Part shown: one piece after another, positions 23,278 through 29,766 of the stretch | Layout of the letters: every line of letters begins with the position of its first letter | Position numbering within the stretch: position 1 is the stretch's first letter | NCBI GenBank assembly: GCA_021513715.1 | Contig: CP084167.1 | Location: 3,072,001-3,136,000 of the forward strand | Source of the DNA: Candidatus Heimdallarchaeum endolithica | GTDB lineage: Archaea; Asgardarchaeota; Heimdallarchaeia; Heimdallarchaeales; Heimdallarchaeaceae | Direction: 5' to 3' | Length of the DNA: 64,000 bases | Notes under the pieces: generated by a model | Database searches by the model: none | What the model was told of the DNA's origin: nothing | What the model saw: only the letters and a program-made list of their open reading frames with translations | Translations under genes and position numbers: made by a program

Positions 23278-26200
23278 ATGTTGTCTGATGCCAAAATTTC
23301 TTTTTTACTTATTTTAATAATTTTACCTAGTTTTACTATAATGTATGAAAATGTTAATATTCAAACCTCCAACTTGAAAAATGAAGAGAATAATAAAAAT
23401 AAAATTTATTCGTTAAATAATAGTGATAACAAAAAAATAAGTAGAAATACGAATCAAAATAATTATAATAATATAAGGTATAACACAAAAAATAATGATT
23501 TTGATAAAATCTATTTTTCTTCTTTACCAGAAAAAGCTAAATGGGTAGAAAGAAATGAATCTTTTACTGGTAGAGTTTTATACTCATTATGTGATTTAGA
23601 TGAAGATAAAATCCCAGAAATTATTACATTTTCTGATGTTAATGGACAAATTCAAGATAGAAGAGAACCAGGTTACACTAAATTTTTAGAATATAATGAA
23701 ACTACAGGAACTTTTTCTAATGAACTTTTGAGTATTAGCACTATAGGACCAACTATTTACTATCCTGTTGAAGCATATACAGATAACGAAGCATATCTAC
23801 TAGAAAAAACATTTTCTGATAATTATCCTGATAACATTTTTGTCTGGAAAAAGTGGAATGGAACTGGACTTGTAAATGTTTCTTCAGAAACTTACATTAA
23901 GAATGATGGATTATATGATTGTGATAGTTATGATTTTGACTTAGATGGAAATGTAGATTTAGTTTGTAATTGGGGTTATTACACTGGTTTATGGACTAGA
24001 TTAGAATTAGAAAATGGGCTTTTTTCTTCTACTGATTATTCATTTTATAATGGTGGTAGATCTATTTTTGTGAGTGATTTAGATAACGATGGTAATCCAA
24101 ATGTAGCTGTATTATACGCATCTGGTAAAATAAACATTTATAATTATAACCCAAGTATAAACGATTTCCAATTTCAACAACAAATATCAGGAATTAGCTC
24201 ACTAAAAGTTATGTATCCATGGGATTATGACCATAATGGTTATACTGATATTATAGTTGTTTCCACACCGTCTGAAGCTGTTATTTATTCTTATGAATGG
24301 GATAGTACTTCTTCATCTTATATCCAAAAATTGTCATATGCAATTCCTGGAGCAACAGGTAGTCAATGGACTGGAATTCCTCGATACTGTGATTTGCTAG
24401 GAAATGGAGAAATAACAATGGTTTTTGATATTGTTCGTAATTCTCGTTCAGAGATAGGCTTTATCACTTACGAAAATAATAACTTTGTTTTTAATTCCAT
24501 CTACAACCATACAGATAGTTCAAAAATTTTTCCTATAACAGCTCAAATTGATGATGATGCAGAAAGGGAAGTACTGGTAAACTATGAAAAGAATGTAGAT
24601 GAATATTATACAAAAATATTAGATTTGGAAGCGTTTAATGAGAGTCGGTATTTTGAAACATTTGATACTAATATTTTTGATTCTTCACCAAATTCACTGT
24701 ACTCTTGGAGTAAAAGTGGCAGTAGTGTGATTGTATCAGATGGGCTGTTAAAAATTTTGGCTGATGGAACAAATGATGATTATGCAAAAATTAGTTTGTC
24801 TAATGAAACCAGATCTATTCAGATTAGAGCAAGAGTAACATTAAATGGCGATAAATATTCATATCCAGAAATAATAATAAAAAATGACAATGCTGATATA
24901 ATAGCTAATTTCACTTTTAGTCAAATTGATGGATGGAGATTACCTCAATTAGGTTATTTAAGAGATTATAGAGGCCCAACAGTAAAAGGTGTTTGGTATG
25001 ATTTAATGATCAATTTTGGGGATAATTCATTAACATTTTATACAAAAAAACCTTATCAAGATTATTGGAGATATATTGCCAGATTCAACATTAGTGGTAA
25101 TTTGAACAATTTATTCTTTTATCAACGTAATAATGCAGAAATAGAAATTGAATCTGTAGATATATATTATAGTGGATATGATACTGATTCTGATGGTTTG
25201 ACTGATAATGATGAGCTTAACATTTATTTTACTGACCCTAATAATAATGACACTGACAGTGATGGTATGTCTGATGGTTGGGAGGTTGGTAACAGTCTGG
25301 ATCCTTTAACTGATGATTCTTCATTAGATCCTGATAGTGACGCTTTAACTAACTTGAATGAATATCAAGCTGGTACTGACCCTAATGATTCTGATACCGA
25401 TAATGATGGTTTAGTCGATGGTGATGAGGTTAATACTTATTTTACTGACCCTACTGTTAGTGACACTGACAGTGATGGTTTAGTCGATGGTTGGGAAGTA
25501 GACAACAGTTTGGATCCTTTAACTGATGATTCTTCATTAGACCCTGATAGTGACGCTTTAACTAACTTGGGTGAATATCAAGCTGGTACTGACCCTAATG
25601 ATTCTGATACCGATAATGATGGTTTAGTCGATGGTGATGAGGTTAATACTTATTTTACTGACCCTAATAATAATGACACTGACAGTGATGGTATGTCTGA
25701 TGGTTGGGAAGTAGACAACAGTCTGGATCCTTTAACTGATGATTCTTCATTAGACCCTGATAGTGACGCTTTAACTAACTTGGATGAATATCAAGCTGGT
25801 ACTGACCCTACTGTTAGTGACACTGACAGTGATGGTATGCTTGATGGTTGGGAGATAGGTTGTGGTTTAGACCCTCTTGTTGATGATTCTTCATTAGACC
25901 CTGATAACGATGGATTAACTAACTTGGATGAATATCAAGCTGGTACTGACCCTAATGATTCTGATACCGATAGTGATGGTTTAATTGATGGTGATGAGGT
26001 TAATACTTATTCTACTGACCCTAATGATTCTGATACCGATAGTGATGGTTTAATTGATGGTGATGAGGTTAATACTTATTCTACTGACCCTACTAATAAT
26101 GACACTGACAGTGATGGTTTAATTGATGGTGATGAGGTTAATACTTATTCTACTAACCCTGTTGATTCTGACACTGATTCTGATGGACTAACAGATGGTG

Positions 26201-29200: not shown

Positions 29201-29766
29201 AATTAAAGAAAGTAGCATTAGAAAATATAGAAAACTTATCTGAAGAAAAATTATTGCAACCGTTTAATATTTTACTTAATACATTATCACAAATTGAGAA
29301 ATCAATAAAAAGAACTGATGATTTTATTAATGAATTCACTTTTTCTAAACTTTCATATTACTGGGGAAATTTAACTGATATCATAACTAATTTGAAACTA
29401 GATGTTGAAGATAAAAAAGAAGAAATTAGAAAAGATGTTGAAGAAATAAGTAAAGTGCTTAAGGATAAAAAGATGAACGTTGAGAGGATAGAGACGCTTA
29501 ATAAAGTGGTTTCAGTTTATAAACAGATTTCACTAACCAAACTGGCTTATATGCTCAAATTTTCTTCTTCCTCTGCGTTAATTTACTGGTTATCAAAGCA
29601 AAATTTAGATGTTTCTTATATAGTCGTTGATGATGAAATAATTTTTGATAAACAAGAAGAAAAGGAAGAAGAATTAGACTATGATAGTGAAGTGGCAAAA
29701 GCAATAGATTCTCTGTTAAAGCAATATGATGAATGGTCAAAAGGTGATGAAGGAAAAAAGATTTAA
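23278..29766 (+). CDS. Giant membrane-anchored surface protein: FG-GAP/VCBS-like repeats, beta-sandwich, about 50 TSP3-like Ca-binding repeats, TM, cytoplasmic helical + PCI-like domain
   Basis: Signal peptide; DLDEDKIPEI, DFDLDGNVDL, DLDNDGNPNV, DYDHNGYTDI, DLLGNG motifs; DTDSDGLxDGxE repeats; TM followed by KKRKRK; C-terminal YKQISLTKLAYMLKF. Confidence 0.85.
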   Translation: MLSDAKISFLLILIILPSFTIMYENVNIQTSNLKNEENNKNKIYSLNNSDNKKISRNTNQNNYNNIRYNTKNNDFDKIYFSSLPEKAKWVERNESFTGRVLYSLCDLDEDKIPEIITFSDVNGQIQDRREPGYTKFLEYNETTGTFSNELLSISTIGPTIYYPVEAYTDNEAYLLEKTFSDNYPDNIFVWKKWNGTGLVNVSSETYIKNDGLYDCDSYDFDLDGNVDLVCNWGYYTGLWTRLELENGLFSSTDYSFYNGGRSIFVSDLDNDGNPNVAVLYASGKINIYNYNPSINDFQFQQQISGISSLKVMYPWDYDHNGYTDIIVVSTPSEAVIYSYEWDSTSSSYIQKLSYAIPGATGSQWTGIPRYCDLLGNGEITMVFDIVRNSRSEIGFITYENNNFVFNSIYNHTDSSKIFPITAQIDDDAEREVLVNYEKNVDEYYTKILDLEAFNESRYFETFDTNIFDSSPNSLYSWSKSGSSVIVSDGLLKILADGTNDDYAKISLSNETRSIQIRARVTLNGDKYSYPEIIIKNDNADIIANFTFSQIDGWRLPQLGYLRDYRGPTVKGVWYDLMINFGDNSLTFYTKKPYQDYWRYIARFNISGNLNNLFFYQRNNAEIEIESVDIYYSGYDTDSDGLTDNDELNIYFTDPNNNDTDSDGMSDGWEVGNSLDPLTDDSSLDPDSDALTNLNEYQAGTDPNDSDTDNDGLVDGDEVNTYFTDPTVSDTDSDGLVDGWEVDNSLDPLTDDSSLDPDSDALTNLGEYQAGTDPNDSDTDNDGLVDGDEVNTYFTDPNNNDTDSDGMSDGWEVDNSLDPLTDDSSLDPDSDALTNLDEYQAGTDPTVSDTDSDGMLDGWEIGCGLDPLVDDSSLDPDNDGLTNLDEYQAGTDPNDSDTDSDGLIDGDEVNTYSTDPNDSDTDSDGLIDGDEVNTYSTDPTNNDTDSDGLIDGDEVNTYSTNPVDSDTDSDGLTDGDEVNIYSTDPNNSDTDSDGMLDGWEADNSLDPLTDDSSLDPDSDALTNLNEYQAGTDPNDSDTDNDGLIDGDEVNIYSTDPTNNDTDSDGMLDGWEIGCGLDPLVDDSSLDPDTDGLTNLEEYTNSTDPTNNDTDSDGLVDGDEVNIYFTDPNNNDTDSDGMSDGWEAGNSLDPLIDDSSLDPDSDALTNLDEYQAGTDPNDSDTDNDGLVDGDEVNTYSTDPTNNDTDSDGMSDSWEVDNSLDPLTDDSSLDPDSDALTNLDEYQAGTDPNDSDTDNDGLVDGDEVNTYSTDPTNNDTDSDGMLDGWEAGNSLDPLIDDSSLDPDTDGLTNLEEYINSIDPNNNDTDSDGLIDGDEVNIYSTDPTNNDTDSDGMSDSWEVDNSLDPLTDDSSLDPDSDALTNLDEYQAGTDPNDSDTDNDGLVDGDEVNTYSTDPTNNDTDSDGMLDGWEADNSLDPLIDDSSLDPDTDGLTNLEEYINSIDPNNNDTDSDGMLDGWEVDNSLDPLIDDSSLDPDSDALTNLDEYQAGTDPNDSDTDSDGLIDGDEVNTYSTDPNDSDTDSDGLIDGDEVNTYSTDPTNNDTDSDGLIDGDEVNTYSTNPVDSDTDSDGLTDGDEVNIYSTDPNNSDTDDDGMPDGWEVENSLDPLTNDSSLDSDNDGLTNIEEYSNSTDPNNSDTDSDGLTDGEEVNTYGTDPLVSDTDSDGIPDGWEVDNDLNPLTKDSSYDNDDDMLSNYYEYVYHTDPNDPDTDDDELDDYKEVMVFHTDPLDSDTDNDGLTDGEEVNIYSTNPKKSDSDNDGVSDGDEVNVYRTDPLDSDTDSDGISDGEEIKQGKNPKTPLIIVSLMLLFGSQRNIIIAGVGITVVFVVISLLVIVTIKKRKRKEREIKKKRISKRKKTLLNIFNDKLSSIENDWLWIEKTQKLGQNLFNPEYSEKISELFVNTINLLVDFNYSFTENIRYLTNPNWLDLKKRLNTLLDKFRNFLLRELKEIDVNEKFNEISEELKKVALENIENLSEEKLLQPFNILLNTLSQIEKSIKRTDDFINEFTFSKLSYYWGNLTDIITNLKLDVEDKKEEIRKDVEEISKVLKDKKMNVERIETLNKVVSVYKQISLTKLAYMLKFSSSSALIYWLSKQNLDVSYIVVDDEIIFDKQEEKEEELDYDSEVAKAIDSLLKQYDEWSKGDEGKKI
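25180..28701 (+). repeat. Intragenic tandem array of 66/69/78-bp units with a 213-bp higher-order period
   Basis: Units are A (23 aa), B (26 aa, W-containing) and C (22 aa). Near-identical at DNA level, e.g. 25915-26246 matches 27757-28088. Confidence 0.92.

Follow-up and report, generated by a model that had tools for sequence, protein, structure and literature searches.

A giant surface protein of Candidatus Heimdallarchaeum endolithica with a predicted PCI-like cytoplasmic tail and a possible link to UFM1-type conjugation

The 64,000-nucleotide stretch of DNA analysed here (the window; contig CP084167.1 of the Asgard archaeon Candidatus Heimdallarchaeum endolithica, positions 3,072,001 to 3,136,000, with a guanine-plus-cytosine content of 27-38 %) encodes at window positions 23278..29766 of the forward strand a giant surface protein of 2162 amino acids (aa) plus stop codon. 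The reading frame is single and uninterrupted and has ortholog-level relatives, and the open reading frame (ORF) listed in the initial annotation, an earlier reading of the letters of this DNA, is real. That reading had also proposed a receptor-like, single-pass layout, which is upheld: an ectodomain head is followed by a stalk, one transmembrane (TM) helix and a folded, PCI-like tail, as would befit a type I surface protein. Nevertheless, it is safer to speak of a surface protein with a portable docking module than of a signalling receptor, and it is rather probable in our view that the tail is such a module, with the UFM1-type conjugation machinery as its favoured partner. Genome-wide searches covered the single 3.33-Mb contig.

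The predicted fold of the tail

The cytoplasmic tail comprises 313 aa and was modelled with AlphaFold2 from an alignment of 120 rows (A3), which united the paralogs of this genome with matches from an exhaustive profile search; the model reached a predicted local distance difference test score (pLDDT) of 90.2 and a predicted TM-score (pTM) of 0.76. It opens with a helical-repeat region (aa 1873-2080, positions 28894..29517, pLDDT mostly 86-98) that has a 58-residue helix at its end and is conserved in close relatives only. The following segment is a PCI-type winged helix (WH; aa 2083-2123, positions 29524..29646), as judged from the strand-helix-helix-hairpin order in the model, from superposition on CSN7 and from conservation, and it is joined by an acidic linker to a terminal helix (aa 2135-2155). 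Together with the basic end of the protein, this helix forms a conserved C-terminal element (aa 2135-2162, positions 29680..29763) that recurs in alignments A1-A3 and at the C-termini of 150 database representatives with the consensus IDxLLxxFxEWExxGxGK(K/I/V). Alignment A3 shows near-invariance at two positions of the WH (L2093 and W2104), at two of the terminal helix (I2143 and L2146) and at the lysine of the final Gly-Lys (K2160). The strings that had been quoted for the tail in the initial annotation, YKQISLTKLAYMLKF, LIYWL, DEIIF and IDSLLKQYDEW, lie where they had been placed.

A Foldseek search of the PDB with the tail returned PCI subunits in nearly all of the top 50 matches (CSN2/3/4, Rpn3/5/6/7/12 and eIF3), at E 1.5e-3 to 2e-2 and TM-scores of ~0.2, and all ten rows of a shape search in the ESM Atlas belonged to eukaryotic PCI families (CSN8/PSMD8/eIF3k, eIF3c, eIF3l, CSN2, CSN3, PSMD12/CSN4 and PSMD3), with TM-scores of 0.28-0.43. 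With an aligner that is independent of Foldseek, the WH could be superposed on CSN7 (3chm_A) with Z 8.9 and a root-mean-square deviation (rmsd) of 1.4 Å over 64 aa, and the WH plus C-terminal helix on CSN3 with Z 8.3. The Pfam PCI profile PF01399 matches 9 of the 26 paralogous tails at E < 0.1; eight of these score 14-21 bits, and the tail of one 172-aa soluble protein exceeds the curated cut-off (29.7 vs 22 bits). Additional weak matches of the paralogs are to CSN8_PSD8_EIF3K, Paf67 and SAC3_GANP, and the weak rows of a search of the family profile against PDB sequences include Rpn12, eIF3e and eIF3a.

Several observations weigh against the PCI assignment, and these have to be set beside the matches just described. 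The helical part alone aligns at Z ~11 with helical bundles of a generic kind, among them STAT and MukF, global comparison with PCI proteins yields TM-scores of no more than 0.2-0.43, and the tail of the protein under study has no match of its own to Pfam PCI. The family profile gave nothing significant against PDB sequences (E >= 0.27 for all rows, E >= 0.7 for the PCI rows), and the PCI model also matches weakly in 6 of 14 control prokaryote genomes. What the predicted structure does display is a WH of PCI topology with helical repeats before it and a C-terminal helix after it, which is the arrangement that characterizes the PCI fold. The claim of a PCI-like tail in the initial annotation holds as far as the fold is concerned, with two independent structure libraries, the CSN7 superposition and the Pfam matches of paralogs on its side, but it finds no Pfam PCI match in the tail itself. 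On the strength of the model we regard the tail as PCI-like in fold and leave membership of the PCI family (PF01399) aside. Pfam as a whole does not match the tail and has no family that would name the module, NCBIfam holds no family for the head or the tail, and a language-model atlas search gave no usable match; a search for related loci with the single tail was likewise negative. The prediction of a homodimer of the whole tail (two copies, A3) scored 0.00, which counts neither for nor against self-association. Outside the tail family, two ORFs of the genome pass the Pfam PCI cut-off, at genome positions 1307767-1308018 (-; 31.2 bits) and 1187484-1187642 (-; 24.4 bits), in open frames of 1002 and 149 aa.

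Spread of the tail module and its association with a UFM1-type operon

It had been suggested in the initial annotation to look for the same C-terminal tail on other ectodomains, and iterated hidden Markov model searches over all ORFs of the genome gave a positive answer that extends to soluble proteins. The module, which corresponds to the last ~125-215 residues, lies at the C-terminus of 27 ORFs, and a six-frame search of the genome found 28 matching places. About 17 of the carriers have a TM helix and an ectodomain, and ~10 are soluble and signal-less. The former include proteins with an FG-GAP propeller (six), a PQQ-like propeller (one) or a beta-helix/NosD domain (ten); a thrombospondin type 3 (TSP3) stalk is present in nearly all of these, and in every case a single TM helix precedes the tail. 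The latter are leucine-rich repeat (LRR), WD40, helical and tandem-WH proteins. As the same tail thus occurs on surface proteins and on signal-less soluble carriers, the module is likely to be cytoplasmic and portable. The closest tail relative within the genome is a 2071-aa PQQ-propeller paralog, and a 132-aa ORF that looks by eye like a CheY-type receiver lies between this paralog and a 291-aa soluble module gene (genome 498534-498932, -). Nine paralogs with beta-helix, TSP3 stalk, TM helix and tail are arrayed at genome positions 611845-640165, and this array is broken up by two transposase-like ORFs of 312 and 262 aa that are near-identical to each other. At two further places (genome 481061-482635 and 789005-790789) a helical and an LRR module protein are encoded by adjacent genes, and the two products of such a pair are candidate partners in a soluble heterodimer.

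The profile of the module, run against a library of 1.84 billion representatives, finds 551 proteins, 141 of them at E <= 1e-10. The module is nearly always C-terminal in these representatives, which include multi-pass membrane proteins, and the named members all come from Heimdall-group Asgard archaea. Among 301 sampled Asgard genomes, 88 have a match, and only four of the sampled genomes, all from the archaeal family to which this organism belongs, show a large expansion, with 8-28 matches. In one other Asgard family (f11), 34 of 76 genomes match only the WH part of the profile (positions ~30-97; for example G300:C73:130-336), by single-copy frames of ~385-440 aa with one stop codon and in the absence of a UFC1-type E2; these matches probably represent a different WH family. 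The literature searched contains no description of the tail module and no link between PCI-like domains and the Asgard UFM1 system. Judged from sequence, the tail module is a large unnamed family, restricted to Asgard archaea in what was searched.

A possible partner is suggested by a co-oriented operon of the UFM1 type at genome positions 531553-536287. It encodes a ThiF E1 of 292 aa, a JAB/MPN protein of 351 aa (532459-533514), a modifier of 88 aa, a UFC1-like E2 (533908-534366) whose match to PF08694 narrowly passes the cut-off, an EAP30-like tandem-WH protein of 345 aa (534592-535626) and an SPFH/Band 7 protein of 215 aa. The Pfam Ufm1 model has no match anywhere in the genome; the modifier ends in ...NRGVVG-L and aligns with Ubl-E2 fusions of other Asgard genomes, in which modifier and E2 are fused. 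Ufm1 homologues have recently been reported in Asgard archaea, without E3-like or adaptor components (PMC12962969).

When E2-positive genomes are defined by a profile of these Asgard UFC1-like E2s, 23 of the 301 sampled genomes have the E2, and the module is found in 20 of these 23 vs 68 of the 278 others; these statistics overstate the association, as the sampled genomes are related and not independent, and the module counts include the family that matches by its WH part only. Among the 41 closest relatives, the module is present in all ten E2-positive genomes and the E2 in none of the 26 module-negative ones. In five genomes, which represent four genera, the E2 has a module gene at a distance of less than 10 kb, where 0.59 would be expected by chance. 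The genes concerned are a divergent WD40-plus-tail gene, small TM-plus-tail genes and, in one case, the gene of a module-bearing, 1198-aa beta-helix surface protein that is inserted between the E2 and the tandem-WH gene. Apart from the two caveats on the counts, it speaks against the association that many module-bearing genomes have no detected E2, and that in the genome studied here the nearest module genes are ~24 kb away from the UFM1-type operon; the gene at 23278..29766 is likewise not within 10 kb of it. We consider the link between module and operon suggestive at the level of the family, by gene content and neighbourhood, and unproven for this particular gene.

Topology, ectodomain and genomic neighbourhood

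That the tail faces the cytoplasm is argued for by several features of the protein. A hydropathy scan found a single TM-grade segment before the tail (aa 1827-1849, positions 28756..28824; mean hydropathy ~3.0), and it is followed by a basic cluster (aa 1850-1872, positions 28825..28893), with 12 Lys/Arg in the 30 residues after the TM helix vs 4 before it, in keeping with the TM helix and basic stop-transfer that had been proposed. Ahead of the TM helix, a juxtamembrane run of hydrophobic residues (aa 1811-1822) shows poor conservation when compared with the H. aukensis relative described below and, with ~12 residues, is too short for spanning the membrane. A hairpin of the two segments, which would place the tail outside, was considered and rejected, since the first of them is that short, the basic residues cluster behind the second, and ~10 proteins that have neither signal peptide nor TM helix carry the module at their end as well. 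We infer from this that the protein has type I topology, running from the outside to the inside, and that its tail is cytoplasmic. At the N-terminus, a hydrophobic segment (aa 7-22, by hydropathy) forms the core of a predicted signal peptide or signal anchor (aa 1-24, positions 23278..23349), which bears out the signal peptide claim with this widening; the same segment is found in most of the TM-bearing paralogs.

The head (aa ~90-465, positions 23545..24672) is of the FG-GAP beta-propeller type, as indicated by a match to Pfam FG-GAP_3 (E 7.5e-9, three stretches), Ca-loop-like motifs, an all-beta model and Foldseek. The motifs number five (at aa 106, 219, 267, 316 and 372), of which three are canonical DxDxDG/DxDxNG and two degenerate, and the earlier count of at least five blades is therefore roughly right in the number of motifs, but only three of these are canonical. 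The model of the head, calculated from a nine-row alignment, is all-beta but of low confidence (pLDDT 59) and too poor for counting blades; its Foldseek matches are enzymes that combine a propeller with a beta-sandwich, for example sialidases and GH32, which fits a propeller-plus-sandwich architecture and proves neither blade number nor kinship to integrins. The next domain, on the membrane-proximal side of the head (aa ~470-640, positions 24685..25197), contains only strands in the model, of which it is the best part (pLDDT 70-83), and has no Pfam family. Its Foldseek matches are enzymes in which a propeller is combined with a lectin-like domain, and it is probably a beta-sandwich or jelly roll, so that the beta-sandwich of the initial annotation is plausible, though not firmly established at an overall pLDDT of 59.

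From there a long acidic stalk reaches to the membrane (aa 641-1806, positions 25198..28695), and it consists of bacterial-type TSP3 repeats, i.e. tandem Ca-binding repeats of the form DxDxDGxxDxxE: TSP3_bac (PF18884) matches 29 stretches within aa 640-1850 (E 1.1e-93), and the stalk contains 31 % Asp+Glu and 0.6 % Lys+Arg. The long acidic repeat region that had been noted earlier is in this way accounted for.

Close homologues of the head are rare, with only three in the large databases searched. The closest belongs to a protein of 2641 or 2646 aa of Candidatus Heimdallarchaeum aukensis, and the identity of 81.6 % between the two heads shows that the gene is conserved. The genes that flank the locus (POR subunits, EAP30-like, beta-CASP, OMP decarboxylase and MFS) are found in collinear order, with identities of 89-97 %, in H. 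aukensis, the sister species. The syntenic slot of that organism is occupied by an 883-aa protein whose tail is 63.5 % identical to the tail under study and whose close relatives carry beta-helix heads, whereas the gene with the orthologous FG-GAP head lies elsewhere in its genome and has a tail that is only 52.5 % identical. As the tail in the slot is closer than that of the FG-GAP ortholog, a swap of ectodomains is indicated, and the simplest reading of these sequences is that recombination between paralogs, for which the repetitive stalk probably offered the site, joined the resident tail of the slot to a different head and stalk. A decayed FG-GAP head remnant lies directly downstream of a 2273-aa beta-helix paralog in the genome of H. 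endolithica (genome 153040-154257, -; two ORFs of 97 and 286 aa, 86 % identical to aa 88-339 of the protein discussed here), and it is probably the relic of an ectodomain exchange.

An EAP30/Vps22-36-like tandem-WH gene (positions 20737..21552, reverse strand; Pfam EAP30 E 2e-11) is located 1.7 kb upstream of the gene. A syntenic counterpart exists in H. aukensis (89 % identity), and the tandem-WH gene behind the UFC1-like E2 of the UFM1-type operon is distantly paralogous to it (26 %, E 3.4e-10). A gene of this kind is a sign of Asgard ancestry, as is the H. aukensis relative of the surface protein. We regard this neighbour as genomic context, and a functional link to the surface protein is unproven.

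A probable docking module and its possible partners

In the explanation that we favour, the protein would present an FG-GAP propeller and a beta domain, probably adhesive or ligand-binding, on top of a Ca-binding TSP3 stalk of ~1150 residues, and inside the cell a 313-residue tail that is folded like a small PCI protein and ends in an amphipathic helix with a conserved Gly-Lys. This tail would connect the varied carriers (propeller, beta-helix, LRR, WD40 and helical proteins) to a common cytoplasmic partner, which we tentatively identify, by inference only, as the Asgard UFM1-type conjugation set, consisting of a UBA5-like E1, a JAB/MPN protease, a UFM1-like modifier, a UFC1-like E2, a tandem-WH protein and an SPFH protein. 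The carriers could be adaptors or targets of this set, similar to the service that DDRGK1, a membrane-anchored protein with a PCI-like WH, does for UFL1/UFC1 in eukaryotes. A more specific version, in which the tail is the archaeal counterpart of a DDRGK1-type UFMylation adaptor that docks the UFC1-like E2, the tandem-WH (UFL1-like) protein or the JAB protein, perhaps with the terminal lysine as acceptor, is conceivable but doubtful.

The likeness to DDRGK1/UFBP1 (PMC9627666) is one of description: both are membrane-anchored and have a long cytosolic helix followed by a C-terminal PCI-like WH, and just like DDRGK1 and UFL1, the module is associated with a system of UFM1, UBA5 and UFC1 with a tandem-WH protein, in its case by gene neighbourhood and co-occurrence. 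DDRGK1, however, has its anchor at the N-terminus, whereas the TM helix of the archaeal protein is C-proximal and follows a huge ectodomain, and in a six-frame search of the genome the DDRGK profile PF09756 matched no copy of the module (best E 0.14, elsewhere in the genome). With the PCI subunits of the 26S lid, the COP9 signalosome and eIF3 the tail shares helical repeats, a strand-helix-helix-hairpin WH and a C-terminal helix in the same order, and its WH superposes on theirs at an rmsd of 1.4-1.6 Å. It differs from them in its fusion to a TM helix and a giant ectodomain, its much smaller helical part, its own terminal motif IDxLLxxFxEWE..GK, its marginal sequence similarity and its restriction to Asgard archaea in our searches; moreover, a 6+2 PCI/MPN complex is known for the eukaryotic subunits, whereas the tail has only a JAB/MPN gene in the co-occurring operon.

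The comparison with integrin alpha concerns the general plan: in both, a head built as an FG-GAP propeller with Ca-loop motifs is borne by a stalk, and one TM helix leads over to a tail in the cytoplasm. Integrin alpha has Ig-like thigh and calf domains where the archaeal protein has 29 TSP3 repeats, and a short tail with GFFKR where the latter has a folded domain of 313 aa without GFFKR. As to the seven blades of the integrin propeller, the archaeal head has FG-GAP_3 in three stretches, five motifs and a model whose pLDDT of 59 is too low for a count; a partner equivalent to the integrin beta subunit is not known here, and no search was made for one. FG-GAP propellers are widespread in prokaryotic surface proteins.

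Alternatively, the tails could be pure oligomerization units of the PCI style, which would cluster surface proteins and soluble paralogs in sub-membrane assemblies, with WHs edge to edge and C-terminal helices bundled as in the horseshoe of lid and CSN, and without any protein tagging. The PCI-like fold including the terminal helix, the 27 paralogs that are available for hetero-oligomers and the two adjacent pairs of helical and LRR module genes at 481 kb and 789 kb are in line with this, but such an assembly is itself hypothetical and would leave the neighbourhood and co-occurrence with the UFC1-type operon unexplained, so that we think this explanation unlikely. Still less probable is a structural adhesin or cell-envelope protein whose tail carries no information and merely anchors or stabilizes it, for example at the cytoskeleton or the membrane. 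Giant surface proteins with propeller or beta-helix and TSP3 repeats are indeed common adhesin-like designs, and the ectodomains are swapped and arrayed like those of variable surface proteins, with insertion-sequence elements in the array; yet the module also ends ~10 soluble proteins as well as multi-pass membrane proteins without ectodomain, and the near-invariance of certain W, I, L and K residues speaks for a specific surface for binding.

To an ESCRT-related sorting or shedding signal, in which the WH would engage ESCRT-II-like tandem-WH proteins and bring the carrier into vesicles or protrusions, we assign a similarly small chance. In its favour are the EAP30-like gene upstream, whose arrangement is kept in H. 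aukensis despite the different ectodomain, the EAP30-like protein that the UFM1-type operon also encodes, and the finding by Makarova et al. (2024) of HTH/PCI domains on Asgard ESCRT-associated proteins and, in ESCRT loci, of PCI-like WHs on archaeal membrane kinases (PMC10936438). Compared by description, those domains resemble the module in being small C-terminal PCI-like WHs on membrane-associated archaeal proteins, but their carriers are kinases or Vps28-C/longin proteins, and the terminal motif, the 27-fold expansion with surface proteins and the association with a UFM1 operon are not described there (PMC10936438). Against an ESCRT role it also counts that no ESCRT-II proteins are among the structural matches listed, that a beta-CASP gene separates the gene from its EAP30-like neighbour, which has divergent orientation, and that most other module genes have no ESCRT neighbour. 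The winged-helix fold and weak HTH-family matches in a few paralogs could finally suggest a membrane-tethered transcription factor with the logic of ToxR or CadC. However, the WHs of the family are acidic, with a median net charge of -2, and their conserved positions are hydrophobic, which argues against DNA binding and for protein docking; DNA binding by the tail was rejected on these grounds. As the module also occurs on LRR and WD40 proteins and its best matches are PCI proteins and not DNA-binding WH proteins, a transcription factor is highly improbable.

With docking to the UFM1-type machinery as the preferred explanation, the tail module would be a concrete candidate for the missing adaptor layer of the Asgard UFM1 system. 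PCI scaffolds such as those of lid, CSN and eIF3, as well as UFMylation, are regarded as eukaryotic inventions. If the tail is indeed the counterpart of a DDRGK1-type adaptor, an ancestral UFM1 system would have had surface, LRR and WD40 proteins by the dozen as its adaptors or substrates, and assemblies of the PCI/MPN type would be older than eukaryotes. The apparent ectodomain swap underlines the modular design and points to a rapid exchange of ectodomains on conserved tails in Asgard surface proteins, and the protein may thereby exemplify how the eukaryote-style design of ectodomain, TM helix and folded cytoplasmic docking domain arose.

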